Shown here: in pieces, positions 1,993 to 61,225 of the stretch
Numbering within the stretch: the first letter of the stretch is position 1
Layout of the letters: each line of letters starts with the position of its first letter
Virus record (IMG/VR): IMGVR_UViG_3300037657_000271
Span: 1 to 63,069 of that record
DNA length: 63,069 bases
From: a virus
Taxonomy: Duplodnaviria > Caudoviricetes
Strand: one strand, 5' to 3'
Made by a program: the position numbers and the translations under genes
The notes under the pieces: generated by a model
What the model saw: only the letters and a program-made list of their open reading frames with translations
What the model was told of the DNA's origin: nothing
The model's database searches: none

Positions 1993-2011
<19 letters not shown>

Positions 2012-3492
2012 CCGACCGTATACGCACGTCGTTCCGAAAGGGGCGACGTGAGTATTTTTAGGTGGTCTTTATGGACCTCCACCCGGAGTTGAAGGGCGTG
2101 AAAAACCTCTTTCAACTCCGGTTCGCCGGCAGACGAAAGCTCTCGCTTTACCAGAGCAATGATTTCCTCGATATCCCCAATGGGCAATTCCGAACAATCC
2201 TCAGGAATCTGAGGAATCTCATCCAGGGCCTTTTGTTGCCGGTCCTTTTCCTGTCTGAATTCCTCCAACTTTCCCACCACGAGGTTTCGGGGAATGTCCC
2301 CCTTGGCCAATTCATCCAGCATGACCGATATTTTCTGGTCCACCTGGGCTATTCTTTTCCTGATGACCCCCGCTTCAACTTGAGTCTTCTTTCTCGTTAT
2401 CTCCTGGTTGGCGGCAAACTCTTTGAGAACACTTTCAATCGTTTTTCGGTTCAGGTGGTTCTGGAGAATTTCATTCCTGATGGCGTCGACAATCGCCGAC
2501 TCTTCCGGCCGGTTTTGGTTTTCGCAAAGGTGCCGGTGGCGATTGGCACAACATAGGCGGAACTCCCCCCGCGTTATCCCCCGAACAATATAGGGAGCCC
2601 CGCAAACTCCACAAAAGATCAATCCGGAAAGAGGGTGGGGGCTTCCTGAAAGTCTGGGAGTTTGTTTTGCATTGGCCGCCAATCGGGCCTGAACCTTATT
2701 CCACGTTTCCTCATCAATAATTCTGGGGGCCGCACCCTCCGAAATAACGGTACCACTTTTCGAGCGCCAAACCAGATTACCGCGATAGGTTTCATACCTG
2801 AGAAGTTGGAAGAGAGCCCCCTGGCTCCATGCCTTGGCTTTCCGGGGACGGAACCCCCTTGCAGTCAGTTCGGTAATGGCCTTCTTCAAGCCGAATCCAT
2901 TTGCCATCATGTCGAAGAGATTCTGGACCACGATCGCTTCTTCTTCCTGAATGACGAGAACTGTTCGCTCTTTCCCGGTGGCCTGGTCGATTACCCGTTT
3001 ATTCTGATACCCATAAGGGGCAGTCCCACCGCATCGAAAACCCTTTTTGGTATTGGTGATCATTCCCGACCTGGTTTCCATGGCCAGATTTTCTGAATAA
3101 AACGCCGCCACGGCCTCAATGATGACTTCGAGGAGCCGGCCGGTTGTAGAATCGGTGTCAATGTCCTCCCGGGCGGAAATGACTTTGATGCCCTGCCGGC
3201 GGAGCATCGTCTTGTAGACCCGGGAAACAGTGACATCGCGGGCGAAACGATCATACTTCCTGACCATGAGAACATCCCACGGGCGGGGAGTTTTCTTCGA
3301 ATCGGCAATCATCCGCTGAAATTCCGGGCGGTTTTCAACCTTCCCGCTTTGAGCGGTATCAACGTACTCGGTAACGATCTGACTTTCAGGCCAAAGCCGG
3401 ACAGCCTTTTCCGTGCATTCCGCCCGCTGGGTCTCTATCGTCGCGTCATCTTGGTTGTCCGAAGAATAGCGGAGATACAATGCGATTTTCAC
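1993..3492 (-). CDS. Large serine recombinase (prophage integrase); 3' end overlaps the tRNA
   Basis: YLRYSS catalytic motif, RPEFQRMI, DRFAR, recombinase domain, LSGLIFCGVCG zinc ribbon, coiled coil. Confidence 0.95.
2025..2059 (+). terminator. Hairpin/terminator downstream of tRNA-Leu, inside the integrase CDS
   Basis: CACGTCGTTCC-GAAA-GGGGCGACGTG followed by AGTATTTTT. Confidence 0.55.
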
Positions 3493-3515
3493 AAGAACAC
3501 TACTTATCCCTCAAC

Positions 3516-4691
3516 CTACGTCCCTGGTTGAAGAGAAGCCGTATCATCATCCAGCAATCGAAAATCGGTTATATGATCGATTCGCCCCATTCGAATTCCT
3601 CTTTGAAAATTGCCACACACTCTGATGTAACCAAGGCCTTGTTTGTGCGCCTGAAGAGCAAGTTCATACATACTTGCGTCAAGATTGACCCGGGCTTTTA
3701 ATGCCTCTCCGGCTTCACGGTCCAGAAGAGAAAGAATAACCTCTCCAGCCCTGTTACCATCTTCTCCAACATCACCGTTAAGGCTTTCCACCGTTCCAAC
3801 AAACATTTGGGGCGTATCCATCTCCTTACTTGGCCTTAAAAGCCCGGCAACTTTTTCAATAACTGGAAAATACTCCACAGGAAACGCCACACAAGCAGGG
3901 GTATTGTTTGGTAGTTCCAGATCCCTTGGACTTCCCCATTGTGCTTTCAATTCCAGTTTTCCATCATCCGGAGGTTGCATGCGCAAAAGGGCATCGCAAA
4001 GATTCCATGTGATGGACTTTCCTTCTGTTCCGTCTTTTTCAATTACCCGATCAACGCTATTTTCCTCGATTCCTTTGATTAACCGACTGGTAGCGGTCAT
4101 CAACAAACGTGTTGCCTTTCGCACAAATGGTTCTTCGGTAGGGAGCGGAGGTGCCTCCTTTTCCACGGAAAATAGAGGACAAACAATTTTTATCACATAG
4201 CTTCCATGCTCAGTTTGTCCCGATCGACAATTTTTAATAAGTTGTTCAGCAGGTCCACGGCTCATTCTTGGGTGATGCCTTGCCGGTTTTACAACTGAAC
4301 ACGCAGCCGCCAAAAGAGCTTTTTTTGCCCCCTCTCTCAAGGCAATATCATCCAAAAAGGGGACTTCTCCCATTCTGGAATCTGGCGATGAAATTCTGAA
4401 TCGAAGTACATCGGAATCAACACAATGCAAATCCGACAATACGGAGAGCAGATCTCTTTCTTCAATTGCACTCAGCCTGTTGGCGACTTCTAACATGGCA
4501 TCGCCAAACCCCGGAATTTCGGAATCCATAGGGATGTGTAGTTGTTTAAGCGGAATTTCGGGATGGGCAAGTACCCAAATCCGACCCTTGACCCCCTCAA
4601 CCGATTTCCACTTTCGGGCTTCCCCATATTGCTTAACAGAAAGAGGTTTCAGGCCAAGGGCCAGTTTTAAGAGCTGCTGTTTAGCCTGCAT
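3516..4691 (-). CDS. Hypothetical protein, DUF4365 partner (candidate defence protein)
   Basis: 391-aa ORF with AGGAGG RBS, overlapping the DUF4365 stop; C-terminal OB-like segment. Confidence 0.7.
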   Translation of the reverse strand: MQAKQQLLKLALGLKPLSVKQYGEARKWKSVEGVKGRIWVLAHPEIPLKQLHIPMDSEIPGFGDAMLEVANRLSAIEERDLLSVLSDLHCVDSDVLRFRISSPDSRMGEVPFLDDIALREGAKKALLAAACSVVKPARHHPRMSRGPAEQLIKNCRSGQTEHGSYVIKIVCPLFSVEKEAPPLPTEEPFVRKATRLLMTATSRLIKGIEENSVDRVIEKDGTEGKSITWNLCDALLRMQPPDDGKLELKAQWGSPRDLELPNNTPACVAFPVEYFPVIEKVAGLLRPSKEMDTPQMFVGTVESLNGDVGEDGNRAGEVILSLLDREAGEALKARVNLDASMYELALQAHKQGLGYIRVCGNFQRGIRMGRIDHITDFRLLDDDTASLQPGT

Positions 4692-5214
4692 AGCGTATGT
4701 CCTCCTGTTGGGCAATTCTGAGAAACAAATCGCTCAAGCCCTCTGGGGAAAAAACCTGTGTTTTCGGCAAATACACCGTTTGCCCGGTTGAGTTGGCAGT
4801 TTCGGGAGCTCCTATAAGACTAACCCAATAGGCGCATTTTTGCAAAATCAATTGTGTTGGTGTGTGCTGAAGCCATTTTTCTTTGTTTTTTGGTAAAAAA
4901 AGAACAACAAGCAACTTTGGAGGCAGAGCAGTTTCAGCTCTCAAAACATTGTAACGGTCAACATTGTCCAGAAAATATGGGTATCTTCCATCAATTTCCT
5001 CCACCTCTTTTGTGGTTGCTTTAAGTTGAATGTTTATGGTGATATCCGTTAAAAACGCATTGGAGGAGAATTCCTTAACCTGATGCAAATTTGCATCTAT
5101 TCCAGCGTTGTCAAACTGCCTTGCAGCAACCTGGCAACCGGCCCCAATTTTGGCCGCAACGGCATGGAGATACGCATAACTCAACTCTGATTCGATGTCT
5201 TGATCGGTCATCAT
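4681..5214 (-). CDS. DUF4365 family PD-(D/E)xK-like nuclease-fold protein
   Basis: ELSYAYLHAVAA...DNAGID...IQLKAT...LLVVLFLP...CAYWVSL pattern. Confidence 0.8.
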   Translation of the reverse strand: MMTDQDIESELSYAYLHAVAAKIGAGCQVAARQFDNAGIDANLHQVKEFSSNAFLTDITINIQLKATTKEVEEIDGRYPYFLDNVDRYNVLRAETALPPKLLVVLFLPKNKEKWLQHTPTQLILQKCAYWVSLIGAPETANSTGQTVYLPKTQVFSPEGLSDLFLRIAQQEDIRYAG

Positions 5215-5273
5215 TTATTTCATATCTCCTGCTGGGATTCTCTGAAGGGAAATTGGCCTGATTGGGTCACCCA

Positions 5274-5714
5274 TCACCGCTCCTCCATGATATCCAGGAG
5301 GAATGCTTTTTCCGTTTTCAAATGCTCTGCCAAGGCAAACTGGCAATGAACAAGCTCCTCAAAAGTATCAACAAGATGTTGCCGAAGATCGTCGATTGCC
5401 TGCCAATCCTCGTCGCCGACTCCAATCAGATCAAGATCCTGGAACTCGGCAAACCATTGATCCTCTTCAAAATAGACGGTGATGGTGATTTCTCGCTTCA
5501 ATCGATACTCTTGGGATTTAAGATTCCCAAGTTTCTCTTCTCTGGATGAATGCAACAAGAGAATCCTTTTTCTGGAAAGAAACAGCCCACTCGTGAGGAA
5601 TTTTCTCCATGATAGCAGAAATTGGGGTTTCTTGTAAGTTCCGAATTCTTTGCATGGTATCATTGATCCTTCGTTTTCCACCCAAGTGGCCACATTCAAA
5701 GGATTTTTTGACAT
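5274..5714 (-). CDS. Hypothetical protein with HicB-like C-terminal fold
   Basis: ITVYFEEDQWFAEFQDLDLIGVGDEDWQAIDDL resembles the HicB partial RNase H fold; start uncertain. Confidence 0.45.
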   Translation of the reverse strand: MSKNPLNVATWVENEGSMIPCKEFGTYKKPQFLLSWRKFLTSGLFLSRKRILLLHSSREEKLGNLKSQEYRLKREITITVYFEEDQWFAEFQDLDLIGVGDEDWQAIDDLRQHLVDTFEELVHCQFALAEHLKTEKAFLLDIMEER

Positions 5715-5715
5715 T

Positions 5716-6855
5716 TTACTCCTTCCTCCACTTGCCTAGCTGGCCAGTCTTCAAGACCTTCACAAGTCGTGGACCCATTTCTTCTGGAAGTTGCTTTTCC
5801 CCTGAAGTAGAGAAATGGCACTCTGAACATTGAACTCTGATTTTATTTGTGTCCCTCTCTGAAACCAATAATTCATGGGAATTACATCTTGGACAAGCCA
5901 TCATCCAAGAGGAAATGATCTTGCGAATATCCTGTATTGAAGCAAGTTTTTTCCGTCTCAGGTGACTTTTAACCTCATGAAAACCATTGTTCACTTGATT
6001 TTTACGGAAATGCAATGGAACAAAAGAAAAAAAATCGGTTTCAACCTTTTGTTTGAGCCTGTCATGAGAATCGGAAGGCTCCATTCCATGATGGAATAAA
6101 CAAAGAGAAACTAGATTCTCTTGAATGTGGCTTCCACCTTTTGAGATTGGAATTACATGATGAATGTGAAGTGGAAGTCTATTTGGACAACCCGTTACTT
6201 GGCAGGTGTGCCTATCGCGCTCCAATACCTTTGCCCTAAGTTCTTCCCAAAACGGGGGATAACCTGGCCAATGTTGAAAAATGAAAAGAATTTTTCGGTC
6301 AGAATCTGATAGATAGGCTGAATTAAGAAAAGAAAAAAGATTGGGTTTTGGTTCCTCGGGGAAGTTTCGTGAAAAATTTTCCTGCTCATTTTTAATCAAA
6401 ACCTTTTTGTTTTTTTCAAAATCAATTGAACAGACGATTGAGAAAACAACAAAAACGAGAAAACCAGGGAAGAGAAAAGAAAGAAGAAAAAAGATACATC
6501 CGAAAAATGGTCCGGAATAAGGTTCTTGTTTTATTTTTTCAATTTTTTTATTGAGAAGTTCAATGTTTTCGTCCCTTAATTTGGTTCTCGCGAGATACTC
6601 TCTTCTTTGAAATTCATATTTTTCGGGATATTGAATTGTTGAAATATTATTCAGACAGCAAACGCAAAGAGGGGTCCTGTCAGAAAGAAATATCATTTCT
6701 TGAGAAATAAGCCCACAAAAAAAACAGGTTGCATGCCCCCGTCTTATGTCATCTAGTGAAAAATAGTTTTTTTGCTTTTCGAGGATTCCATCAATATTCA
6801 CCCTTGCCAAAAGGCTTTTTGGAGAATAAGCTGCAAAAAAATCTGTTGAGGTCAA
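5716..6855 (-). CDS. Membrane-anchored HNH endonuclease
   Basis: Hydrophobic segment (FFGCIFFLLSFLFPGFLVFVVFSIVC), WEELRAKVLERD..CQ..C...HIHHVIPISKGGSH..NLVSLC..H HNH motif, terminal CxxC pairs; AT-rich. Confidence 0.8.
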   Translation of the reverse strand: MTSTDFFAAYSPKSLLARVNIDGILEKQKNYFSLDDIRRGHATCFFCGLISQEMIFLSDRTPLCVCCLNNISTIQYPEKYEFQRREYLARTKLRDENIELLNKKIEKIKQEPYSGPFFGCIFFLLSFLFPGFLVFVVFSIVCSIDFEKNKKVLIKNEQENFSRNFPEEPKPNLFSFLNSAYLSDSDRKILFIFQHWPGYPPFWEELRAKVLERDRHTCQVTGCPNRLPLHIHHVIPISKGGSHIQENLVSLCLFHHGMEPSDSHDRLKQKVETDFFSFVPLHFRKNQVNNGFHEVKSHLRRKKLASIQDIRKIISSWMMACPRCNSHELLVSERDTNKIRVQCSECHFSTSGEKQLPEEMGPRLVKVLKTGQLGKWRKE

Positions 6856-6946: not shown

Positions 6947-7771
6947 TTAAAACTCTTGTTTGGACAGAATCACGCGGCCCACAAGAACCAGATTGTTGAC
7001 CTGCTCTCCAACGAGAATAATAGGCTCAACCATAGGATTATCTGGCTTCAAGATAATGGTATCATCAGCCCGGTAAAACCTCTTCAGTGTGAATTCATCG
7101 AATGGCCCGAGTTTGGTCACGTAAACCTTTCCGTTCACGGGAGCTCGATCCGCTTCGACAATCACCAGGTCGCCGGGGTTGATTCGCGGGGTCATGGAGT
7201 CGCCCTTTACTATCAGGCCGAAGAGCCTTCGCCCCTTTGCCTCAAATTCCGGCATGTAATAATGCCCGATCGGCTCTCCGGAAATTTCCTCTGGGGGGCC
7301 GGCGGGAATCTTCCCAAAGATCGGGATCGGGATAGTCTTCTGGACGTTGGCTGGGTTGCGGTTCAATTGATCCAAAGGATCAATGAGATCTAGAGGGGAA
7401 ACACCCAACAACACGGCAATTTCTTTTACTTCATTTTCACTGGGCAAAACCCGGCCAATTTCCCAGTGTTGGAATTTTTCCCGACTGATGTTCGCCATTT
7501 TCATGAGTTCTTTCCGGCTCAATTGTGCGCTTATCAAAAATAAGTCGACCTTTCTGACAAAGCTCGACCTAATTGGATTGTCTGAGATGAGTTCGTCTGG
7601 GGGGATTTCCAAGGCATGAGCAATCTTTTCAATGGTCTCTGGGTCCGGAGTAGAACGCTCAGTAAGCCAATTTGTGATGTCGTATGGCTTACGATTAATT
7701 TTTTCGGCCAATTCCGAATTTTTAACTGTTTTCCTTTTTAAAACCTCTCGAAGTCGTGTTCCAAAGCTCAA
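6947..7771 (-). CDS. CI-like repressor: two XRE HTH domains + S24 peptidase
   Basis: Two HTH repeats, IPAG cleavage site, VKGDSM serine and TLKR lysine motifs. Confidence 0.9.
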   Translation of the reverse strand: MSFGTRLREVLKRKTVKNSELAEKINRKPYDITNWLTERSTPDPETIEKIAHALEIPPDELISDNPIRSSFVRKVDLFLISAQLSRKELMKMANISREKFQHWEIGRVLPSENEVKEIAVLLGVSPLDLIDPLDQLNRNPANVQKTIPIPIFGKIPAGPPEEISGEPIGHYYMPEFEAKGRRLFGLIVKGDSMTPRINPGDLVIVEADRAPVNGKVYVTKLGPFDEFTLKRFYRADDTIILKPDNPMVEPIILVGEQVNNLVLVGRVILSKQEF

Positions 7772-8705: not shown

Positions 8706-8778
8706 GTCCCCGTGGTCCAGTGGAGTGGACGCCGCCCTGTCACGGCGGAAATCGCAGGTTCGATCCCTGTCGGGGACG
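8706..8778 (+). tRNA. tRNA-Asp(GTC), phage-encoded
   Basis: GTCCCCG/CGGGGAC acceptor stem, CCGCC-CTGTCAC-GGCGG anticodon arm, GGTTCGATCCC. Confidence 0.93.
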
Positions 8779-8821
8779 CTGATCCTCTTTTCGCCCGGAG
8801 TTTCCCGGGCACTGAAAGAAC

Positions 8822-9424
8822 ATGGTCATGAATTTGGATTTAATTCTTCTGCAGAAGCACATAGGTGAAGTCCCATCGGCAAGAAGAAGGGCTCCCAGGG
8901 TTTTCAAGGACCCCAAGGGCTACCTCTTCTTCTATGGCTATACACCTGAAAGAAGGAAGGTTTTCATTCATAGGGTGGTAGCCGAGATGAAGATTGGGAG
9001 AACCCTTTTCAAAAATGAGGCGGTTCATCACGTAGACCAGGATAAGGAAAACAACTCGTGGGAAAACCTTGAAATAATGACCCGAAAGGATCATGCAAAA
9101 CATCATTCCAAAGAAATTGAATTTTGGAAAGGAAGCCCAAGACATAAAAAAGAGGAAAGAAGTATGGACCCAAAACGGGGAAAGATGACCGAGCGGTTAA
9201 TGGTACCGGGCTGTAAACCCGACACGCGAAAGCGTTACGAAGGTTCGAATCCTTTTCTTTCCAATGCAGAGGCGCTAAACGGTGACTGGGCCAGTTGTGG
9301 TGGCCGGCAGCGAATCAACGAACTCAAAAGACACCGTGACCGCCGGGAGAGACCGGCACTTAAAAGATCACCCACAGATAGGAGGCGTGGCCCCGGCCAA
9401 CGGACGGGGCGCTTGGGGGAATAG
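8822..9424 (+). CDS. HNH homing endonuclease (HNH_3-like); ORF runs through tRNA-Tyr
   Basis: KVFIHRVVAE...VHHVDQDKENNSWENLEIMTRKDHAKHH. Confidence 0.8.
   Translation: MVMNLDLILLQKHIGEVPSARRRAPRVFKDPKGYLFFYGYTPERRKVFIHRVVAEMKIGRTLFKNEAVHHVDQDKENNSWENLEIMTRKDHAKHHSKEIEFWKGSPRHKKEERSMDPKRGKMTERLMVPGCKPDTRKRYEGSNPFLSNAEALNGDWASCGGRQRINELKRHRDRRERPALKRSPTDRRRGPGQRTGRLGE
9179..9263 (+). tRNA. tRNA-Tyr(GTA), phage-encoded
   Basis: GGAAAGA/TCTTTCC acceptor stem, CTGTAAA anticodon loop, long variable arm, GGTTCGAATCC. Confidence 0.92.
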
Positions 9425-9487
9425 CTCAACTGGAAGAGTACCTGGCTCCAAACCAGGATGCTGAGGGTTCAAGTCCTTCTTCCCCCG
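9415..9487 (+). tRNA. tRNA-Trp(CCA), phage-encoded
   Basis: GGGGGAA/TTCCCCC acceptor stem, CCTGG-CTCCAAA-CCAGG anticodon arm, GGTTCAAGTCC. Confidence 0.93.
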
Positions 9488-9617
9488 ATGGTCAGCCGGT
9501 GGTATCAGGGGCCTGATACCGGCCTCAAACAACGCTAGCCCTGAAGCCGGTGTGAACCCGGCGGAAACAAAACAATGGAGGAATCATGGAAGAACAATCA
9601 AAGGTGAACAAAAAACC

Positions 9618-48300: not shown

Positions 48301-51300
48301 TTTCGTATGCGGGTGAAAAGTCCCTGAAAAATCTTCCGGCAAAAGAGGAGAAAATCAAAAAAAACAATCTTGAAGTGGCCAAAAAAATGGATGTTTCCAA
48401 CATGGATACGGAAAAAATCCGCCTTGCAACTGGCTGGTTCAAGGGGCCATATGATGGGAAATGGCGGTATGAAGTTGATGACTCTTCGGCAAGCCTGACC
48501 GAAACCTTCCAAAACCTGAAAAACAACAAGATTGTGAAGCTTGAAAAAGTGTTGTCTCATCCCAAATTGTTTAAAGCCTATCCCTGGATGCGGGAAGTGT
48601 TGTTTGTCTCTGATGGGGAAATGTCTCCCGGTTCCGCCCTTTTTAGCCCAGGCCTTGGAAAGCACGGCCAAATTACAATGTCTGACAAGTTCCCCATTGG
48701 CAAAAATGGCAACCTTTTTTCGGACGAAAAGATTACTCTTCTTCATGAAATTCAACACGCTATCCAAAGCAATGAAGGCTTTGCACGCGGGGGAAGCCTT
48801 GCTCACGCCGCAATGGAAAAGAACGCTGCCAGAAAGGAATACCTCCTTTGGGGTGACGCTTTTTCTCTGAAAACGTGGGCCGAAGAAAACAACCTGGGAA
48901 TTCGGGAGGCGGTAAAACCTCTCGAAAACTACTTCGGGGATGAGCTTCTTGATCCAGAAGGAGCTATCAATCTGGCCGAGTCGTTTAGCCGGGAAACCTT
49001 GGCAGAAAGAGCCGAAACAGCAAAGAGCAAAATGAGCGGAGACGATATTGACCTTTATCGCCGCCATGCCGGCGAAATCGAATCCCGAGATGTTGAGGAT
49101 CGAGCCGGCCTGAACGAAAAAGAAAGAAAAGAATACGAACCGTTTTCTTCCGCCGATGTATCCCCTGAAGATGCCATTGTAAGGTTTGGGTCCAATGATT
49201 CTGCCAAAATCGGAGATATCCAAGCCAATGCTCCAAACATTCGGTTTTCCCGGAAGGATTCTGCCAAAATTGAAGATGTCCAAAACAAAACTCCTGAAGA
49301 AGCACAAAAAGAATATCTTGGTGAACCGCTAAAGGTTCCGGAAGTCACCATGCAAGACATTGTTGAAACTGCCAAAGGAAAAAAGACCCGGGAGATCACC
49401 GAAGCCATTCCGGCCATGACCCCCAAGGACAAATCATTTCTGGAAAAACTGGGAGGGATGCTTGGAACACTGGGCCAGGGGTTTGTTTCCCTTGTGGGGC
49501 CATTGGCGTCTGAAGTATCCGAGGCCAGGGCCAAAGAGTTGGGCGTAGAAAAAAACAAGCTAGATCTCCACGCTTTGAAACAATGGCTTGAATCATTGCG
49601 GGGAAAAGTCATGGGAGAAATAGAAGAAGCACTGATGCGTGCCCATATCAACGCCGAGTCCGATAAAATGGTGAAATGGATTGAAGAGTCGACTTCTCCT
49701 GGAGACTTCCGCGATTTTATTTTGGACAAATACCGCCGAATCGTCTACCCATGGCACGCTTTCGGAGCCATTCAGCGGAAATTGTTCTTGATTGCTGAGC
49801 GGGTCTATTGGGATGGGGCCAAAATTGCCCCCAGTCCTGGATTTCGTGTGGAAAAAGTGGAGAAAAAGACCAAATCCGATGGGAGCGTGTACTTGGAAAA
49901 ATCCTACCAATACCAGCAGGACGTTTCCCCTGACCTGGTGATGGAAAATTTCCAGGCACTTCCTCAGTGGGCACAAGAGGCAATCACCGCCAGAGCCCAA
50001 CACAACGAAACGTTCCGCAAAGAATTGGTGGAAAAGAAAATCCCTGAACGAATTCAGAAAAACGAAGTTCAGACGCGGATTGTGGAAGCCCAAATCGCCG
50101 AGGCCGAGCAACGCTTGGTTGATCTGGAATCCATGCCGGATGCAGATAAATCCGAAGGGGTCATTGAGGCCATTAAAAAACAGAGCAACAAACTTAAATC
50201 CCTGCGTCGCGACTGGGGAAAGCTCCAAACTCAGCTACGGTTGGATCGGGATAACCGCGGGCATTATGGATACGTCCATCACTATGGATATCCAACCGAG
50301 ATCATGGGTGAGGCCACGGAAGGGACACCCCCGGTCATCAAGCCGGGAACGGCTGAATGGTATGATGCGGTTCCCCCTTCCTGGAAATATCGCCAGGGAA
50401 CTCGCGGATATCGTGACGTTTCTTTGGTGGAAGCAGATTTGATGCAACGTCGCGGGGAAACTCGGGCGGAATTCGAAAACAAACTGCTTTTGGAGATCGA
50501 GGATACCTATGGGGTCAACGCGGAAGACTACCGAGAGAACAAGGAGGAATGGGACGCCCGGGCCGGGAACAAAGGCTGGGCCGCCATCGATTCCCTTGAT
50601 AAAAAAGACGCTCAGGGGAATCCTCTCAAACTTATGCTTCCTGGGGACGTATACCGCACCTATTTCAATGTGCGCCATCCCGAAGGGAACACCACGTTGG
50701 GCGCGGAAGCCGCAAAGGTGTTTGAAGCACTTGACTCCCTGACCGGGCCGATGAATGAAGCCCTGTTGTGGCATCCCACCAAATTTTTCCGCGATATCCT
50801 TTCCGGACCAATCCATGTCATGGAGTTCATTCGGGATTATGGCACTCGCAACATGAACGATCCCGGGAAGGTGGCCGCGATGATTCCCGCCGCTTGGGAT
50901 GCCTTGAAAAAAGCGTATTCTCCGATTGCTCCCGACGTTTGGCGAAAGTATTCCCCGGGAACTCTTCGAGAGTTTTCGGAGAGTCTGTACTTTCAGAAAG
51001 ACCGAGAACCCGGCGTGATCGTTCGTGGGCTTGACCGGCTTAGTCGAGCGGTTTCCGAGTTTCCTATTGGGTCAGTATTAGCCCAGGTTTTCCGCACGGT
51101 AAATCTTGCCGGGGCTGGGGACATTCCCCTTCGCCGCTTCTTCACGATCCTCGGGGAGAACCTGGCCGACCAAGAAAAGCTGACCGGAGCCGAGCGCGAA
51201 AAGTTCATTCAGAACATGGTTTCCCAATACGGCTTCGACACCAAAAATCTGACCCCGGGACTGGCATTTTTCAGGGGCCTGGATGAAAGCCGGGCCTCAA

Positions 51301-52442
51301 AAATTATGGGTACGGCCTCCAGAGCAATCGCTCCGTTTTTCGGGTATCCCTTTTTGGCCGCCAAGTCCATGCTGATCGATCCGTTTTATCGCGGACTTCC
51401 CGATGTGGCTCAGGGAGGCAGAAAAGCAATGTTGGAGGGACTGACACCGGAGGCGCAAAAACAACTTCTTTCCGGATCATCCGAAATTCTGCGCCCGGTG
51501 TTGTGGGGGTTGCTTGCCATGGCCGCCCACGGCTGGGATGACGATGACGAAACGGTAGCCGGCAATCTTCAGGGATTGGAGAATCTTAATCCATTGGCGA
51601 GAACGATCGGGCGAATTCGAGTCGGAGCAAATGAAAAGGGCGAAAGCTGGTTATCGACCAAAGGCTACGGCATAGCAGGATTGGCTGATGCTATGGTTGA
51701 GGCTCTGTTTTCCGACAAGGATAAATCGGTAAGCGATCTGGCCGCCGAGGTTATTTCCGTCAGTCCGAATTTGCAGGTATTCCTGCATGGGATTGGATTT
51801 CCAAGCCCCTACTCGAAACGGACGCCTTTCAAAAACATCCTGGCACAATATCTCACGACGATCATTCTTCCCCAGGTGATTAGGGCAGGACCCGACATGG
51901 CCAAATACTTGTCCCTTGCCATGGATGACAAAACTATCCCCAATCGCGAGAAAATGAGCCTGGTTCAAACGATCTTGAGTCAGTTCGGTGTTCCGGCAAA
52001 AGTTCAGGAAAGTTTGGGGACTGGGCCGGTTCCTCGCCGACAGACCAAAGACAATAAAATGATCGAGCTGGATCCCACCATTGAGATCATCAAACTACTT
52101 GGACCCAATATCCGGCATATTCCCTATACCCTGTCTGCTTCTGAAGCTGGTGAGGCTATGACTACGCTGGACATTATGAAAGAAAAATCGGCCAAGGCTC
52201 ACAAATACCTTTCCGCGCAATGGGGGCAGGGTTTGAGTTCGCAAAAGGCGGCTGAAAAAATCGGATTGTCCCGGGCAATGGAATTCCGCCAGGCTCTTGA
52301 GCAAATTGATATGGATATCGCCGATCGGGAACGTCGCTTGCCCAAAGCCATTATGAACCTTCCAGAGCCATATCGGCAAGCTGCGGACATTAAAAGCAAA
52401 AAGCGGCGGGAAAGTTTCTTGGATTACCTCGACAAAGAATAG
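42363..52442 (+). CDS. Giant polyvalent internal virion protein (two GGDEF-like domains, zincin MPTase-like, LPD23-like)
   Basis: 3359 aa; WHMGGPAF and RVGGDEN; GHELLH..EELLGD; IRLATGWFKGPYDGKWRYEVDD and LLHEIQHAIQ..EGFARGG. Confidence 0.85.
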   Translation: MSSPLFQRFALPVFESPEYNSKPWEEQKELSKNIITQYESAGGTVDDYLADADEYFSAKPVALPKPTTSQGKASIHKFIRSVPGFLELPESSRNNIARDFDSDRASFQEAFSRELEKMDQEVPPTGAMGVEFKDKPSLLRDAITPVKEGVRAMVRAPLQMPGQLTEVLGKLSKATTGYGDLAITSGNEAARFFDDPFSIPGKAVEAFGDIGKETVGYGDAVRSLGQKLQNILPPEDITDPTLGETSRFLTSLAEPLGSGVGSSLGMLKSGAAIGRAVTPSLKSGIQALPGGQKAIDALRPLLEKITPAGSTPTDVAAQLAGSYPVSALLQTGEGIDALEAHPETKKTNPLWALLPGMATAMVDTPLAMALTGKAKLPNPVQKVMDGFGVPGKTALMMGSEGLEEGGQKLGTEMTPYMAMGRLPTSQEFLKLLEEKVAPEAMGGMLSGPVLGAGHLFEKEQNQQKSDGEQVPPSASTPTPPILTPELFAQMKSSFGNPTDGTTFDLGKWKEAMQEVPVQEPQEENIISEAVRQSQTLEEAQAKIKNAYSGIYGANTQQPPSPIVDQSPQPEQGVGIIQETREIKDLKSELKELAEAWKSLKVAGQGVTDPAGKEQIQNMLQALSAKGKPIKAQIESRGQIEARIKSIQEEQKQLEVAMAAAQNNAIARRTIKKRIADNQRMIEGLSSGQINVTERQADLLSKDPMIGQPAEATPTLKALALLDQMDLKAQDRKPKIEPPKPLSVADFPLLSAIRGMGGIRKSTGENGGEYDASIKALEEAGFKATPDIFRAINGTGKLAPDRMANQLFDAGLIPENSPETMWNALRSEVLGLARSRKEAKSEKNRLAEEELRQQDWENNQSEPVTAGTLSRGDQFTIQGEKYRVIDEGDSALKLKDGIEFWMPYDATMPDGTIRIDRGSLAKETSKPGPASVDKTPVTEPTFEDMATMDALDEQWGELGQKPSPNEPKTNAQKAVEYFSMLDGQEVPKPILSKQKTFEDLEKGIQPSFDDLQSTPPSQTQKILPDQVQNPEISGISKSVGVIPAERALPFVPQVDVELEEMVSSGAFDRQTAQKTREVGAAPVNESLGVDDSVSSNLSKKELERMVDAKEALDVEGKLASVVTTDFEILNLAGMNSVYGDQGSNRMISRILNRIRERVNTELAEDYPDSKYYFNLWHMGGPAFRMNLVADSPVAKFMDSVMDNVQRDISELQGQIAAPDIKTGQPVKLADVKHSKDLTKSGTGVMFALLPVDTKEEIGSVFADNKANLQKQGGQDDLVKRWKAGANPDEIVRLTQLVGKTIRGGVESIERIDGRRVGGTGQENRQGPGKATERVEPNPRSRRVSPPKIDDVAKALGLSDDQVKALWDRGVFRIDSSYGLLDSRNQKAAKAMFTNISEMARIAGKPMSLVMIDHAGISASNKIFAEELGESQGKKVTEAIVRKSLEMVDIVLEEAGTTIQKMRVGGDENLGFSTLTPKDATKAMNRAAKRIKERFAEHGFDALPNLKPEKTPYQETWGPGIYFSVIPIDGKTTFEEAMDKAGIGVELAKEAVIEEAKAFIEKRQQEQEKALAASKGKIEKLGGPDLISRKKVLTFLEKVFPVTEEEVQLWWDGGDLGEKKNRIAQAAVDYQADIEHALMEGAGAEAVDLLARALTDIKIPSRRPRFSRQERETSAKGKDDDNAVHSLSKRTENQFRRPGNRGGTEGDAGSSRTRERGVEGSDQERLGRLEVSLSVEERDKGYLGSLKAIETPTVSQALIRDAFQDLFGKRVIFFDDNSPVAKKRGGRSVMNGAVLTDDSDTIYIATSAAHPGMVVAGHELLHTIRMDDADLYDQLLEAITPQIKDTTRFKETMTRRGQTNLSESQIVEELLGDFLGDRMGTRDFWNNLSQKNPTLFERVAGAFRRFCDLIRGWFSRQPNYQSDQYFRDIQAASEVAERVVAEYAQRKRNARSQTGVGKFLNAMEDRFPGEKETETEAARSRFSYAGEKSLKNLPAKEEKIKKNNLEVAKKMDVSNMDTEKIRLATGWFKGPYDGKWRYEVDDSSASLTETFQNLKNNKIVKLEKVLSHPKLFKAYPWMREVLFVSDGEMSPGSALFSPGLGKHGQITMSDKFPIGKNGNLFSDEKITLLHEIQHAIQSNEGFARGGSLAHAAMEKNAARKEYLLWGDAFSLKTWAEENNLGIREAVKPLENYFGDELLDPEGAINLAESFSRETLAERAETAKSKMSGDDIDLYRRHAGEIESRDVEDRAGLNEKERKEYEPFSSADVSPEDAIVRFGSNDSAKIGDIQANAPNIRFSRKDSAKIEDVQNKTPEEAQKEYLGEPLKVPEVTMQDIVETAKGKKTREITEAIPAMTPKDKSFLEKLGGMLGTLGQGFVSLVGPLASEVSEARAKELGVEKNKLDLHALKQWLESLRGKVMGEIEEALMRAHINAESDKMVKWIEESTSPGDFRDFILDKYRRIVYPWHAFGAIQRKLFLIAERVYWDGAKIAPSPGFRVEKVEKKTKSDGSVYLEKSYQYQQDVSPDLVMENFQALPQWAQEAITARAQHNETFRKELVEKKIPERIQKNEVQTRIVEAQIAEAEQRLVDLESMPDADKSEGVIEAIKKQSNKLKSLRRDWGKLQTQLRLDRDNRGHYGYVHHYGYPTEIMGEATEGTPPVIKPGTAEWYDAVPPSWKYRQGTRGYRDVSLVEADLMQRRGETRAEFENKLLLEIEDTYGVNAEDYRENKEEWDARAGNKGWAAIDSLDKKDAQGNPLKLMLPGDVYRTYFNVRHPEGNTTLGAEAAKVFEALDSLTGPMNEALLWHPTKFFRDILSGPIHVMEFIRDYGTRNMNDPGKVAAMIPAAWDALKKAYSPIAPDVWRKYSPGTLREFSESLYFQKDREPGVIVRGLDRLSRAVSEFPIGSVLAQVFRTVNLAGAGDIPLRRFFTILGENLADQEKLTGAEREKFIQNMVSQYGFDTKNLTPGLAFFRGLDESRASKIMGTASRAIAPFFGYPFLAAKSMLIDPFYRGLPDVAQGGRKAMLEGLTPEAQKQLLSGSSEILRPVLWGLLAMAAHGWDDDDETVAGNLQGLENLNPLARTIGRIRVGANEKGESWLSTKGYGIAGLADAMVEALFSDKDKSVSDLAAEVISVSPNLQVFLHGIGFPSPYSKRTPFKNILAQYLTTIILPQVIRAGPDMAKYLSLAMDDKTIPNREKMSLVQTILSQFGVPAKVQESLGTGPVPRRQTKDNKMIELDPTIEIIKLLGPNIRHIPYTLSASEAGEAMTTLDIMKEKSAKAHKYLSAQWGQGLSSQKAAEKIGLSRAMEFRQALEQIDMDIADRERRLPKAIMNLPEPYRQAADIKSKKRRESFLDYLDKE

Positions 52443-57375: not shown

Positions 57376-57546
57376 TTCGCGTTCGAGACGCTTGGTTGAA
57401 AGTTCATCGAAAAGACAAAGATATTTCCGGCGAACTTCAAATTGATTTTTGATTTCCCGAACAATTCTTGAGAATGAGGTCCACATTCTCATTGATCGGC
57501 TTCAGGAGTCCGGAACTGCCCAGGACTATTACCGGTTAAACCATCT

Positions 57547-57580
57547 GCCTGCCGAGAAGATCGGCGGGCTTTGTTTTTTG
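57547..57580 (+). terminator. Intrinsic terminator ending the late operon
   Basis: GCCTGCCGA-GAAGA-TCGGCGGGC followed by TTTGTTTTTTT. Confidence 0.8.
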
Positions 57581-57614
57581 GTTGAGACGTGGCTTTCCGA
57601 GGAGGGGAAAATAG

Positions 57615-57815
57615 ATGTACGCTGATCGCGCGTGTCCGAAGTGTTGGCAAACTTTAGTGGTCAGGTCCGGGCCTTATTTGATTTACGATTGCCCCGATCC
57701 TGATTGTGGCTGGACATCGGAGCTTGAGCCATATCGTTATCCTCTAATTTCAGAAAAATCAAATCAAGCGCTTGCTGATACAGTTCGCCAAATCCAGGTA
57801 GACAAAGCTGTTTAA
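57615..57815 (+). CDS. Small zinc-ribbon protein
   Basis: GGAGG RBS; CPKC..CPDPDC. Confidence 0.55.
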   Translation: MYADRACPKCWQTLVVRSGPYLIYDCPDPDCGWTSELEPYRYPLISEKSNQALADTVRQIQVDKAV

Positions 57816-58284
57816 CGTTTGCCGTTTTCGATCCGCGGGGGTGCCTGGGGTTCGACTTGCTGGAAGGCCCCTTTTCATCCTTTTTCGGGCAGTTCTTTTC
57901 ACAAAAGAATTTTTCCTTTAAATCCGGTCTGCCCTGCAATATTTCCCAGAAACGTGCCATGTAAGCAAACTTGTCTTTGATTCCTTTAATGATGCGGGAA
58001 AGATCATGAATTTTAAGATTTGTTACTTCCTCGATTTCTTGAAGGCGCATTCCCGCCATCTTCAGGCGATAAATTTCCCGTTCAATATCGGATAGAGCGT
58101 GATAATGCGGAACGTCAAGCGATGGACCTTCTTCGGGTTGAATTTCAGTTGCTTGCCCAAGAAGCAGTTTTTTTTCCAGGGCAATGGTGCGCATGGGAAT
58201 TAACTTTGCTCCTCGGGTTTTCGTGCTACGAGGTTTGGGAGTTTTGTATCTGGAGCGTGGTTGGCCCTGGGTGGTTTTTTTCAT
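57661..58284 (-). CDS. Sigma-region-4/LuxR-like HTH protein (candidate late regulator)
   Basis: ALSDIEREIYRLKMAGMRLQEIEEVTNL..LSRIIKGIKDKF. Confidence 0.6.
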   Translation of the reverse strand: MKKTTQGQPRSRYKTPKPRSTKTRGAKLIPMRTIALEKKLLLGQATEIQPEEGPSLDVPHYHALSDIEREIYRLKMAGMRLQEIEEVTNLKIHDLSRIIKGIKDKFAYMARFWEILQGRPDLKEKFFCEKNCPKKDEKGPSSKSNPRHPRGSKTANVKQLCLPGFGELYQQALDLIFLKLEDNDMAQAPMSSHNQDRGNRKSNKART

Positions 58285-58297
58285 TCAATTTAATGGG

Positions 58298-58588
58298 TTA
58301 ATTTTTTGCTCGTCGGGTTCCCCCACAATATTCGCAAGGATGATTTTGTTGGGCCATGGCCCCGCACCCCCAGCACGTTTCGGGACTTGGATTGAGTGTG
58401 GGGGGGAAAGGTTGAGTAGAGTATTGGGCGCTTTGCGCAGCACGTAAGGCCGCCATCATGGCCGTTTCTCGTTGATTGTTTGCAAGTTGAGAATAAGAGA
58501 AAAAATCTCCCTGGGAGTTTTGCACCCCGCCTCTTTGCGGATGATCCAAATATCCCAGAGTTCCCATAAGCCCCATGATTCCATTCAT
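58298..58588 (-). CDS. Hypothetical protein with C-terminal zinc ribbon
   Basis: CWGCGA..CEYCG; ATGA-coupled. Confidence 0.65.
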   Translation of the reverse strand: MNGIMGLMGTLGYLDHPQRGGVQNSQGDFFSYSQLANNQRETAMMAALRAAQSAQYSTQPFPPTLNPSPETCWGCGAMAQQNHPCEYCGGTRRAKN

Positions 58589-58815
58589 CTGCGAATCCTC
58601 CAAATCATCCGGCGTCGACGCCGAAGGCCCAAATGACGTTTGAACGTGTTTTCAATGGCTTTCCAAAAATCGCGAGCTTTGCTGTTCAATTCCTTTTTAA
58701 AGGATGGCGGCCTTCGCTTCTTTTTCCCTCCAGGCCACCGCCGGGAAGTTTGAGCAAGCTCTTTTTTGGAGATGGTGAAGCTTCCCCGAAGCTCCCTGAG
58801 ATCAAGTCGATCCAT
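58585..58815 (-). CDS. Small basic protein
   Basis: ORF in a tight leftward operon. Confidence 0.5.
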   Translation of the reverse strand: MDRLDLRELRGSFTISKKELAQTSRRWPGGKKKRRPPSFKKELNSKARDFWKAIENTFKRHLGLRRRRRMIWRIRR

Positions 58816-58817
58816 GA

Positions 58818-59387
58818 TTACGCCGTCCTTTCAAAAACCACGAACCACCTGGCCCGGCCATTGCGCCCAGTTCCAACGGCAAAAACTCCTTTTTCAGAAG
58901 AGAGACCGGGAACGGGCCGAGGCCACAAGTAGTGAATGATTCCCACACGGCACCCGGGGGAAAGAACCTCCGTAGCACGTTTCAATAGCTGTTCAGGGGT
59001 CGGATAGACAGATTCACCCGGAGGATATTTTCTCGCGTCTTCTGGAGAATAGGGAGAATCAATCAAAATTCCTTTCCAAAAAAGTGGTTGCAGGAAGGGC
59101 AACCTTGCACCAAAACTTGGCCATTGTTTCCTCGCATCCAGCAAAAAATCAGGACAAACCGCGGGATCCAGATCAAGGGTAAAATCTTTGGAACCGAATC
59201 CCCCGGAATAGGGGTATTCCCGCGCCAACCCTCCGCAAACATGGAGAACAGGATCCTCAACAGAACAACCAAGCATGATCCTGGCTCTCTCCGGAAAACC
59301 CCCGAGATAACCCCCGTACCTCTTGTGTCCGTTCAGATACTTACATCGAGCAAGAAGCCAAACGTCTGAAATTGGGCGATAGCTCAT
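58818..59387 (-). CDS. Small amino-methyltransferase-like protein (putative DNA MTase)
   Basis: VLHVCGG (motif I-like), TLDLDP...PDFLLDAR, ILIDSPYS (DPPY variant). Confidence 0.7.
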   Translation of the reverse strand: MSYRPISDVWLLARCKYLNGHKRYGGYLGGFPERARIMLGCSVEDPVLHVCGGLAREYPYSGGFGSKDFTLDLDPAVCPDFLLDARKQWPSFGARLPFLQPLFWKGILIDSPYSPEDARKYPPGESVYPTPEQLLKRATEVLSPGCRVGIIHYLWPRPVPGLSSEKGVFAVGTGRNGRARWFVVFERTA

Positions 59388-59509
59388 CGGTGATTATCCA
59401 TGGATGACAAAACCGCCCAGAGCAAAAGAGCCCGTGGGCGGTTCATGGAAACAATGAATTGCTGGTATGCGCATACCAGCAGGGACAACAAAGCGCTTGG
59501 TTTGTTCAT
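59384..59509 (-). CDS. 41-aa hydrophobic leader peptide coupled to the MTase
   Basis: AGGAG RBS, MNKPSALLSLLVCAYQQFIVSMNRPRALLLWAVLSSMDNHR, ATGA overlap with the MTase start. Confidence 0.45.
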   Translation of the reverse strand: MNKPSALLSLLVCAYQQFIVSMNRPRALLLWAVLSSMDNHR

Positions 59510-59578
59510 TTCAGTCTCCTTTTGGAGACCGAAAAGTCTGGTTGACGGTTACTGCTCTATTTGATTAAATAGATTACC

Positions 59579-61225
59579 CTATCCTTTAAAGGGAGTCAAG
59601 ATGGGAATTTTTTTTTGCGGTCCTGAGTTTCCGACCTTGAATCTGGAGTCGGGACGTCTGGGAATTGAACGGCGTGTGGATATGATAACTCCCGGGCTCC
59701 CGGCAATGAGACCGTTAGGACGGTCACCGAGAAAATCGGTGGCCGTTTCTATTTTTAGCACGTCCTTGCATACCCGAACCTTCAAGTGCAGGGTTTCCAG
59801 CAGTTCACGTAGTTGCCGGCCTTCCGAGACATTCAGGCGGTTTTTTAGAAGCCCGACAAAATCCCGAACATCGTTCTCAGAAACTTCAATAGCGGTGACC
59901 TTCCCCACCTTCTCCGGTAGTCTCTCGATGCTTCCTTTTATCTTCTCCCGAGAATCTGCCAGTTCCAGGAGTTTTCTCTTTACAACTTCCCGGGGAATAT
60001 CTCCCAGGTGAAGTTCGTCCATCAAATCGGATTCATGCTTCTGGGTGGCGGCCAACTGGCGTTGCTGTCGGGTCAGTTCTTCGGCATCGGTCTTGGCGCT
60101 GTCGCCAATTTCCTTTTTGTACAATTCGAGGGCCGTTCTCACGTTAGCCGGAGTAAGGATTTTTTCCAACAATACATCCTTCACTGAGCCGACAAGATCG
60201 ACTTCTTTTATGTGCCGCCGATTGCCGCAGGTGCGGGTGTCACGATGACTTCGGCACACCATATACCAGCCGCGATTGCCCGGGTTTGATCCGATAACGA
60301 AGCTTCCACCACACTCTCCGCAGACAATCATGCCTGCCAGGGGGTGTTGAGACTGCGAGACCGACCGTGGCCGCTGGCTGACATGGCAGCGAGCCAGACG
60401 GGCCTGAACGGTGGTCCAGGTTGCGTGATCCACCAGCACAGGAAGGGAGTTCGGAACACGAACCCAGGTAGCGGGGTCTTTTTCCATACGCCAGATGTTA
60501 GTGCCGATGTAAACTTCATGATGCAACATAAAACTGATTGTGTTAGGGGCCCAAGCTTTTGCCTTTCTGGGCTTTAAACCCTTTTCCCGGAGTTCGGCCA
60601 TAATCGTTTTTAACCTGGCCCCTTCCGAATATCGGTGGAAAATAAACCTCAGGACTGGGGATTCATCTTCATTGATTTCCAGGACTGTTCTCGTCTTCTG
60701 GGTTGCTGGATCGAAGACTCTCTTGTTTTTATAACCATATGGGGCTTCGCCACCACTCCGGAATCCGCGCCTTGTGTTTGTCGCTTGGCCGCTCTTTGTC
60801 TCGGCGGCCAGGTTTTTTGAATAAAACTCGGCAATACCTTCCAGCATGACTTCAAGGAGATTCCCTGCCGCCGTTTCACTGTCGATGGCTTCAAGTGCAG
60901 AAATAACTTTTATTCCATGGATTCGGAGTTTTAGTTTGTATTTTCTTGATACCTCGACATCCCGGGCAAAACGATCAAACTTTCGGACAATGATCACATC
61001 AAAGGACCGGGGCTTCCGCAGAGCTTCTTCAATCATCCTCTGAAAGGCAGGCCGATCTTCCACGCGACCGGACTGGGCTTCCTCCCGATAAATTTTCACA
61101 ACAGTTCCCTGAAGGGAATCCGCTTTGCGGGTGCATTCCTGAATCTGAGTTTCGATGGTCGCACTGTCCTGCTGCTCAGAAGAGAACCTGGCGTAAATGG
61201 CAACTCTACAAGATTTCTGATCCAT
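59579..61225 (-). CDS. Large serine recombinase of the second element
   Basis: YARFSS, RPAFQRMI, DRFAR, HPLAGMIVCGECG; clearly homologous to 1993-3492. Confidence 0.95.
   Translation of the reverse strand: MDQKSCRVAIYARFSSEQQDSATIETQIQECTRKADSLQGTVVKIYREEAQSGRVEDRPAFQRMIEEALRKPRSFDVIIVRKFDRFARDVEVSRKYKLKLRIHGIKVISALEAIDSETAAGNLLEVMLEGIAEFYSKNLAAETKSGQATNTRRGFRSGGEAPYGYKNKRVFDPATQKTRTVLEINEDESPVLRFIFHRYSEGARLKTIMAELREKGLKPRKAKAWAPNTISFMLHHEVYIGTNIWRMEKDPATWVRVPNSLPVLVDHATWTTVQARLARCHVSQRPRSVSQSQHPLAGMIVCGECGGSFVIGSNPGNRGWYMVCRSHRDTRTCGNRRHIKEVDLVGSVKDVLLEKILTPANVRTALELYKKEIGDSAKTDAEELTRQQRQLAATQKHESDLMDELHLGDIPREVVKRKLLELADSREKIKGSIERLPEKVGKVTAIEVSENDVRDFVGLLKNRLNVSEGRQLRELLETLHLKVRVCKDVLKIETATDFLGDRPNGLIAGSPGVIISTRRSIPRRPDSRFKVGNSGPQKKIPILTPFKG
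59696..59705 (+). repeat. attR core GCTCCCGGCA
   Basis: Identical to the tRNA 3' end 2002-2011; read in the same frame (AGS) in both integrases. Confidence 0.85.
59720..59756 (+). terminator. Terminator hairpin inside the second integrase
   Basis: ACGGTCACCGA-GAAAA-TCGGTGGCCGT followed by TTCTATTTTT. Confidence 0.6.

Follow-up and report, generated by a model that had tools for sequence, protein, structure and literature searches.

Probable attP site within a phage serine integrase gene and C-terminal tail exchange at a tRNA-Leu(GAG) locus

Serine integrases need only short sites and no host factors, for which they are prized in genome engineering, and their natural targets have mostly been described as protein-coding genes. 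The enzymes of phiC31, Bxb1, A118/LI and SPbeta have a three-domain architecture with a coiled coil, and their palindromic attP sites have a short core and a non-palindromic central dinucleotide. Recombination of attP with attB by such enzymes runs in one direction and is reversed with the help of a directionality factor. As a rule, the outer (ZD) motifs of attB lie 5 bp closer to the centre than those of attP, according to the portion of PMC3783163 drawn on here. In the part of a survey of M. abscessus that we consulted, Int-S systems all disrupt ORFs (PMC8092301). Paracoccus phage vB_PamS_Pami6 appears in a table with a serine recombinase and with tRNA-Met(CAT) as the predicted place of integration (PMC6536676), so going by that entry the literature already contains a phage with such a recombinase at a tRNA gene.

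The integrases of the fusellovirus SSV and of phage Mx8 are tyrosine recombinases whose genes span attP, and integration of SSV cuts the integrase gene in two. In Mx8 the integrase gene contains attP, and the C-terminal region of IntP is changed on integration, going by the relevant passage of PMC4383910 and the 1996 title cited there. In integration-dependent immunity, as outlined for BPs, Brujita and corynephage CyranoPS in the section consulted (10.64898/2026.10.29.762952), attB lies in a tRNA gene and attP in the 3' end of the repressor gene; recombination by a tyrosine integrase removes a C-terminal peptide that acts as a degradation tag.

We analysed a 63,069-nt stretch of DNA (the window; IMG/VR record IMGVR_UViG_3300037657_000271) that carries two large serine integrase genes, both on the minus strand: Int1 (1993-3492; 499 aa) and Int2 (59579-61225; 548 aa from ATG, extending to 61282 from TTG). 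The two are 41% identical and both contain the Resolvase, Recombinase and Zn_ribbon_recom domains (PF00239, PF07508 and PF13408), the three-domain architecture of the phiC31 group. PF00239, a resolvase-type catalytic domain with a serine nucleophile, matched Int1 and Int2 with an E value of 3e-29; R8, S10 and S11 of Int1 are invariant in 25 of 25 aligned sequences, and the four cysteines of the zinc ribbon are invariant as well. An AlphaFold2 model of Int2, built from the 25-sequence alignment, predicts long helices at residues 359-407 and 412-444, consistent with a coiled-coil insertion.

Between the integrases lies what is putatively the body of a prophage (2005-59696, about 57.7 kb), with cargo genes and genes for RecT, a helicase, a portal and tail-fibre-like proteins. 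It also holds an intact cI-like repressor gene (6947-7771, minus strand), three tRNAs (8706-9488), the large terminase (26970-28988), a 3,359-aa protein (42363-52442) and a DNA methyltransferase (58818-59387, minus strand); its structural genes end before 59400. Int2 forms the left end of a neighbouring element, the right end of which lies outside the window.

To the left stands an intact tRNA-Leu(GAG) gene (1931-2013, plus strand; ARAGORN), preceded by a sigma-70-like promoter (1889-1917, plus strand) that is a match to consensus only (TTGACT-17-TAAAAT, 10/12). The antisense of this tRNA supplies the last two codons and the stop of Int1, which ends ..VGAGSGT*, whereas Int2 runs ..LIAGS into a 38-aa tail ending ..TPFKG. 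Both endings had been proposed by an earlier, sequence-only reading of this DNA, and the tail matched the sequence given there exactly. The tail segment (59579-59695, minus strand; 38 codons and a stop) would be encoded by the right end of the phage next to Int1 (phage 1), and would belong to Int1 in the excised circle.

The 10-bp core GCTCCCGGCA occurs just twice when both strands of the window are searched, at 2002-2011 and 59696-59705, and is read as A-G-S in the same frame of Int1 and Int2. Joining the prophage ends yields an imperfect palindrome with 21 of 30 (also 21 of 35) positions symmetric about CT, the putative crossover dinucleotide at 2003-2004 and 59697-59698; none of 19 neighbouring centres scored above 11 of 30. 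A value of 21/35 was reached by 3 of 200,000 random chimeric junctions and by 5 of 62,997 native window positions. The dyad pairs a P arm at the right end of the prophage (59662-59696) with a P' arm (2005-2039) that encodes the last 12 or so Int1 residues before A-G-S. Within them, outer arms at 59667-59685 and 2016-2034 are inverted repeats matching at 14 of 19 positions, each 11 nt from CT. The core copies and their shared frame, the outer arms, an attP inside the integrase gene with crossover at CT, and the replacement of the C-terminal tail by an antisense-tRNA G-T-stop on integration, all claimed by the sequence-only reading, withstood this analysis. The rebuilt site has what is seen in the attP of large serine recombinases, namely an imperfect inverted repeat, a non-palindromic central dinucleotide and a short identity (10 bp) to attB. 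No direct repeat of at least 14 nt was found between the tRNA region and the rest of the window, so the long core of tyrosine-type systems is absent. An exact search of viral contigs with P arm plus core as query gave no match, and the assembled contigs of two runs showed neither a joint nor a loose end at 59698.

The other junctions are less symmetric. At the right junction as it now stands, made up of P arm and Int2 end, 14/35 positions are symmetric, five of them in the shared core, and at the junction of tRNA and Int2 end 9/35; set against 21/35, these values indicate that the partner of the P arm is the Int1 end rather than the Int2 end. On the bacterial side, the 3' part of the tRNA forms the B arm of attL. 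Identity between core and attB is 10 bp, and would be 14 bp if the native site goes on with CCGA, as do about half of 28 empty tRNA-Leu(gag) sites from related genomes. The attB rebuilt from tRNA and Int2 end has no dyad (9/35), and inspection by eye of the empty sites gave no clear second half-site downstream of the tRNA. The 5-bp inward shift of the phiC31-group rule is weakly seen: B against P' matched at 12/22, equalled by 897 of 20,000 random pieces, and B against P at 10/22, which is not significant.

The DNA at the crossover may also form RNA structure. Terminator-like hairpins with T-runs were scored by a terminator scan on the plus strand at 2025-2060, just after the tRNA and within the Int1 coding sequence, on its opposite strand (z -4.97; 0 of 200 shuffles as stable), and at 59718-59758 within the 3' coding sequence of Int2 (z -4.41). 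Hairpins of 10-14 bp were present in all six integrase 3' ends tested, with Z-scores from -2.7 to -5.8; shuffles as stable as the native hairpin numbered 0/200 in five ends and 3/200 in the sixth (L160). Compensatory changes affect 5 of 11 consensus pairs, and the alignment gives a covariation term close to zero (-0.03). By eye, a hairpin with T-run occupies the same place in most of the 28 empty sites, one of which (L268) is truncated by the end of its contig.

We consider it reasonably probable that a temperate phage (body at 2005-59696, about 57.7 kb) sits in the 3' end of tRNA-Leu(GAG), placed there by Int1, that its attP lies in the integrase gene, and that the exchange of tails is a by-product. 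The attP would span some 60-70 bp as an imperfect palindrome with CT in the middle. On the integrase strand this CT is the AG of a serine codon three codons ahead of the integrated stop; with CT inside this codon, the P' arm takes up roughly the final twelve codons of Int1. The P arm lies at the opposite end of the phage genome and would form about the first ten codons of the 38-codon tail. Strand exchange at CT would then replace the tail with G-T-stop from the antisense T-arm and leave the tRNA intact. The Int2 element would be a related element in tandem at the same site, and by sharing the site Int2 would have inherited the tail of phage 1. Phage 1 probably arrived second, an order that we infer, using as attB the junction of tRNA and Int2 end, in which the conserved tRNA half-site was kept.

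Set beside the described systems, the locus differs from the phiC31 group in having attP inside the integrase ORF, and from the M. abscessus Int-S systems, as far as the consulted part of that survey goes, in targeting a tRNA gene. Pami6 uses a different tRNA, the consulted part of its description contains neither an attP in the integrase gene nor a tail exchange, and the likeness is drawn from that description. The sequence-only reading had drawn two analogies. That with Mx8 holds for architecture, an attP core in the integrase ORF with a changed C-terminus, and breaks down for the enzyme, which in Mx8 is a tyrosine recombinase. Mx8 and SSV belong to another superfamily with other chemistry, whereas the present site would be cut with a 2-bp stagger in a palindrome; and in contrast to SSV only the last integrase residues change. 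The other analogy, with BPs-type repressors, fails: the cI-like repressor gene is intact and some 5 kb away from the crossover (2003-2004), and the gene that is altered here encodes a serine integrase, not the repressor of the published account. Membership of the Mx8 type was considered and set aside, as Pfam detects serine-recombinase domains only, which makes the locus an analogue.

A survey of homologous integrases, which the sequence-only reading had suggested, showed the in-gene attP to be a family trait. Among 25 homologues (36-61% identity, Int1 and Int2 included), 11 end in the G-T-stop of antisense tRNA-Leu(GAG) and 14 carry variable tails of 15-110 aa. In two relatives (L079 and L080), the integrase 3' end lies over antisense tRNA-Leu(gag) in the register seen in the window, and integrases with A-G-D in place of A-G-S match the tRNA acceptor variant of L268-L272. 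The long-tailed integrase of L160 has a dyad of 16/30 at the equivalent centre. The tail now on Int2 is of the Int1 lineage: it agrees at 11 of 21 positions with that of P0004, the closest relative of Int1 (61% identical), and the bodies of P0004 and Int2 are only 47% identical. The arrangement is not unique to this prophage, as 54 of 258 related serine-integrase ORFs have their end within a tRNA gene read in antisense; of 512 other long ORFs at the same loci, none does.

The sequence-only reading had further suggested that the tail may control directionality or stability. In a parallel to IntP/IntX of Mx8, the long Int1 of the free phage would be suited to integration or be unstable, and the short Int1 of the prophage would behave otherwise. 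Exchange of tails is genuine and found across the family; the tails are rich in proline and basic residues, and in none of the 14 long forms do they fall below 15 residues. Past the canonical arm length, beyond about ten codons, two sub-clades have short motifs in common (RY[RF][MF]PIP and IP..RRP..KV), which together with the lack of shorter tails would allow for selection on the peptide. One difference of 9 nt between the window and L160 in the P-arm region also stays in frame. Against a regulatory tail, the family as a whole has no common tail motif, and tails change faster than bodies: 13-24 of 29-30 aligned tail residues are conserved where bodies are 86% identical, and 10-12 of 23-25 in a more distant comparison (bodies 67-69%). 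The Int2 model is confident to about residue 494, with pLDDT below 50 at 500-513 and 526-548; the tail and the last 15 or so body residues are of low confidence. The first ten or so tail codons are also the P arm, and conservation there, such as TCATAWCCACA shared by the window and L160, can be explained at the level of DNA. One 'tail' (L079) is mere read-through of the tRNA, that of L160 continues into the antisense of the next gene, and the L159 integrase ends in G-T-stop at a place where just 20 nt resemble a tRNA and no tRNA is present. The ..TPFKG end is presumably not an ssrA-like tag, such tags ending in ..AA. Taken together, a regulatory module seems unlikely to us. Equally unlikely is a wider proposal, that a whole clade of large serine integrases targets tRNA genes with attP in the 3' end of the integrase gene itself and that integration switches the enzyme reversibly, through the tail, through convergent tRNA transcription to the in-ORF hairpin, or through both; the switch would help to set directionality or lysogen stability, and tandem elements would re-tail the integrase of their neighbour.

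Somewhat more doubtful still is control at the level of RNA. Here convergent tRNA transcripts would end at the hairpin in the integrase ORF, and antisense transcription or polymerase collision would lower integrase expression until excision. The promoter-like site, the convergence of tRNA and Int1 and the conservation of hairpin and T-run within the 3' coding region at six of six loci all speak for it, but the hairpin may merely restore termination of the tRNA, and the T-runs of L080 and L159 are weak. Such control would be compatible with the by-product reading.

We regard as very improbable, and disfavour, a single prophage with two integrases whose right end lies past the window, in which the copy at 59696 would be a site internal to Int2 that has not recombined. 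The Int2 element does run on past the right edge of the window, and Int2 with its tail is an intact ORF, but the P arm is symmetric with the Int1 end and the structural genes stop short of Int2. The tail also resembles that of P0004, as noted above. That the repeat reflects chance or coding homology between paralogues, with no role in recombination, is scarcely credible and disfavoured: exact 10-mers common to the 401-nt surroundings of the tRNA and the remainder of the window number 48 (about 23 expected), so the 10-mer repeat by itself is not significant, and A-G-S is conserved in homologues, but the dyad statistics mark the core as more than chance, L079 and L080 keep the same register with tRNA-Leu, and A-G-S and A-G-D co-vary with the acceptor stem.

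We return to the probable integration by Int1, with the tail swap as its by-product. The folded part of the integrase would stop about 17 residues short of the crossover, and the remaining DNA would be under selection as attP arms and as a replacement terminator hairpin on the tRNA strand. Given the divergence of the tails, their low-confidence model and the same DNA holding both attP arms and terminator-like hairpin, we infer that the swap is a structural by-product of packing attP, tRNA terminator and integrase 3' end together, with no dedicated switch.

Three functions would thus share about 70 bp: the attP arms, a substitute terminator for the tRNA and the C-terminus of the enzyme. The C-terminal form would tell whether a metagenomic integrase was sequenced from an integrated copy or from one that is free (or in tandem). 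A family that targets the conserved 3' end of a tRNA gene and leaves the tRNA intact would supply attB sites already present in many bacteria.

The window, a single contig of 63,069 bases, holds two large serine integrases on the − strand, Int1 (1993–3492) and Int2 (59579–61225/61282), which share Resolvase, Recombinase and Zn_ribbon_recom domains and have 41% identity across about 490 residues. Int1 overlaps a tRNA-Leu(gag) gene (1931–2013) by 21 nt. The proposed 10-bp att core was found in a search of the window at 2002 and 59696 and nowhere else, and in both integrases it reads in frame as A-G-S, as the sequence-only reading had described. Int1 terminates in A-G-S-G-T-stop, with the G-T-stop contributed by the antisense T-arm of the tRNA, and Int2 continues past A-G-S by the 38-residue tail that the same reading had given. 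The core repeat alone is unremarkable, as 48 shared 10-mers were counted against about 23 expected, and there is no longer direct repeat of the kind seen at a tyrosine-type site.

The decisive test of the site is symmetry. When the prophage ends were joined, 21 of 30 positions were symmetric about the CT dinucleotide within the core, and none of 19 neighbouring centres gave more than 11 of 30; the outer arms, each 11 nt from CT, matched at 14 of 19 positions as first reported. Extended to 35 positions, a symmetry of 21 was reached by only 3 of 200,000 random chimeric junctions and by 5 of 62,997 native positions. The P arm at the right end of the prophage showed this symmetry (21/35) with the end of Int1 and only 14/35 with the adjoining end of Int2; its partner is the Int1 end, not the Int2 end. 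We take the core and the exchange of tails to be real and the assignment of the site to be strong. The idea that the right end of the phage is a decayed copy of the tRNA 3′ half was rejected, because the local alignment score of 20 was no better than that of shuffled sequences (18.6 ± 3.4; 688 of 2,000 equal or better). An exact search of viral contigs for the P arm plus core returned no match. Contig-level data from two runs showed neither a joint nor a loose end at the core, which bears on excision neither way; one run, the probable source, has a single contig of 64,231 bases, and the other has short, 100%-identical fragments on either side of 59698.

Who owns the tail can be read from its relatives. 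The tail now on Int2 is identical at 11 of 21 residues to that of the homologous protein P0004, which is 61% identical to Int1 and only 47% identical to the Int2 body. This likeness, together with the attP dyad formed with the Int1 end, places the tail in the Int1 lineage, in agreement with the original proposal. If phage 1 were excised at CT, Int2 would be left ending in A-G-S-G-T-stop. The tail-coding segment also holds a run of eight T (59605–59620; A8 on the integrase strand), a possible slippage site able to alter tail length.

An amidase/LysM gene (1–1500) precedes the tRNA in the window. Between Int1 and a cI-like repressor with HTH and S24 domains (6947–7771) lies a low-GC block (3516–6855; GC 0.37–0.45) that encodes a DUF4365 protein, a 379-aa protein with an HNH-endonuclease domain and two ORFs without known function, and resembles accessory or defence cargo carried at the prophage's left end. 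Three tRNA genes (Asp-gtc, Tyr-gta and Trp-cca; 8706–9488) are found inside the prophage, adjoining the early region. A + strand run of phage genes encodes RecT, a helicase, the large terminase, the portal, a 3359-aa protein and tail-fibre-like proteins; the 3359-aa protein is a single ORF (42363–52442) within the virion-gene block. The final − strand block ends with a DNA methyltransferase gene (58818–59387). This gene and three small − strand ORFs (57661–59387 in all) have the orientation of Int1 and would lie directly downstream of it on the excised circle; integration parts them from Int1, and the present tandem array puts them downstream of Int2. Small ORFs beyond Int2 had no family matches, those in 62000–63069 matched nothing in Pfam and had a single weak match in PHROG, and GC content rises to 0.62 past ~62,000 compared with about 0.50 elsewhere. 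No right end was located for the Int2 element, as the window contains no second core-like site when up to three mismatches are allowed.

To place the two integrases, we drew a family of 25 members, Int1 and Int2 included, from a search of 5.8 billion proteins (36–61% identity). Members split at the A-G-[S/D] position: 11 stop right after G-T (Int1, P0005, P0009, P0011, P0012, P0014, P0020, P0021, P0022, P0123 and P0125) and 14 extend 15–110 residues further. The survey of homologues that had been proposed from the sequence thus shows tail exchange to be a family trait. Among 1.84 billion cluster representatives scanned, only about eight full-length family clusters scored above 650 bits, followed by a steep fall to 454 and 376 bits; P0127, a representative new to the set, is likewise long-tailed. 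In viral contigs, Int2 patterns had no match and relatives of Int1 reached at most 35% identity.

We examined the DNA of four relatives, and for comparison between genomes drew on those of L080 and L079. At two loci, L080 and L079, the 3′ end of the integrase lies over an antisense tRNA-Leu(gag) in exactly the register of the window; the L079 ORF reads through the tRNA because a T-loop variant abolishes the stop. Locus L160 carries the long-tail form, with a dyad of 16/30 at the equivalent centre and a tail that enters the antisense of the next gene. At L159 (4950–6561), the integrase G-T-stop is followed by just 20 nt of tRNA-Leu-like sequence and then by a second cI-like repressor. This locus is probably a further tandem array on that tRNA, formed by an element whose core differs. 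Where A-G-D replaces A-G-S, it corresponds to an acceptor variant of tRNA-Leu(gag) found in related genomes, and so the A-G-[S/D] codons track the host tRNA. Partial tRNA-like matches in two relatives' genomes (G001 and G002) were rejected as displaced fragments, as they are other tRNA-Leu isoacceptors. In P0013, the C-terminal segment is partly duplicated (..DTDMLSHG.. and ..DTDIVSAGD..), possibly a scar left by past recombination at this site.

A regulatory role for the tail, the other part of the original proposal, found no support. Tails change faster than bodies: where bodies were 86% identical, 13–24 of 29–30 aligned tail residues were identical, and where they were 67–69% identical, 10–12 of 23–25. 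No motif was common to all tails of the family. The P arm itself makes up roughly the first ten codons of the tail, and a DNA motif there is common to the window and L160. An AlphaFold2 model of Int2, built on the 25-sequence alignment, was of high confidence to about residue 494, with pLDDT below 50 at 500–513 and 526–548; on these low values, the last ~15 residues of the body and the tail look like a floppy appendage. Two features leave room for function: tail motifs of sub-clades reach past the canonical arm length, and the shortest tail among the long forms still has 15 residues. Tail exchange is a fact of sequence and a trait of the family; its regulatory meaning is unproven, and it is most likely a by-product.

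The 55 nt past the tRNA end, in the direction of the tRNA, contain strong hairpins of 10–14 bp at Int1, Int2, L080, L079, L159 and L160 (z-scores −2.7 to −5.8), and in five of these six loci none of 200 shuffles was as stable. The RNAalifold consensus has 11 pairs, five with compensatory changes, and a covariation term near zero. A simple scan placed terminator-like hairpins at 2025–2050 plus AGTATTTTTA for the Int1 copy and at 59718–59748 plus CTATTTTTAG for the Int2 copy. Of 30 tRNA-Leu(gag) loci compared within the family to which genome G001 belongs, only the two known to be occupied by an integrase differ; most of the remaining 28, inspected by eye, have a hairpin and T-run directly after the tRNA, and one is truncated at a contig edge. 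The phage would supply a replacement tRNA terminator, encoded opposite the last ~20 codons of its integrase.

A 10-nt motif that lies 12 nt from CT in the tRNA-side arm is also present in both attP arms, at 17 nt from the centre. This spacing fits, with weak statistics, the 5-bp shift of a motif between attB and attP described for serine integrases (PMC3783163): one comparison gave 12/22 (897 of 20,000 random pieces equal or better) and another 10/22, which was not significant. Inspection by eye of the Int2 end and of native sequences downstream of the tRNA revealed no second attB half-site. The tRNA half of attB is conserved and its downstream half varies among hosts, so the tRNA-plus-integrase junction of a resident element may still act as attB. 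Such reuse would account for tandem arrays and makes phage 1 more likely the later arrival of the two elements.

Two known kinds meet in this arrangement: prophages with a serine integrase, and integrases encoded by a gene that extends across attP. The latter include the Mx8 and SSV integrases (PMC4383910). Among the former, a survey of M. abscessus prophages describes every serine-integrase system as disrupting an ORF (PMC8092301), and one Paracoccus prophage is listed with a serine recombinase and a predicted tRNA-Met site (PMC6536676). CyranoPS has its att-in-gene switch in the repressor gene, whereas in the window the gene is a serine integrase. Full-text searches of main articles turned up no account of a tRNA-targeting serine integrase whose attP lies within the integrase gene, and the term 'tRNA' was absent from a large LSR discovery preprint by term search (10.1101/2021.11.05.467528).

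Beyond the close family, we collected 238 loci of more distant relatives (L001–L238) with 258 serine-integrase ORFs. Fifty-four of these ORFs terminate within, or at most 40 nt from, an antisense tRNA gene, compared with none of 512 other ORFs of at least 300 aa; they represent 46 distinct C-termini, some loci being near-duplicates. The tRNAs are tRNA-Met(cat) in 50 cases, tRNA-Arg(ccg) in two, and tRNA-Ala(cgc) and tRNA-Leu(gag) in one each, with overlaps, for example, at L093 (5574–5649), L209 (6623–6699), L101 (5585–5661) and L022 (7422–7497). Overlap lengths take a few fixed values, including 12, 19, 21, 29 and 43 nt. A T-arm-antisense peptide motif occurred in the last 60 residues of 17 of 140 full-length representatives of neighbouring clusters and in 7 of 980 control windows. 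The arrangement in the window appears to be part of a sizeable, little-described group of tRNA-targeting serine integrases.
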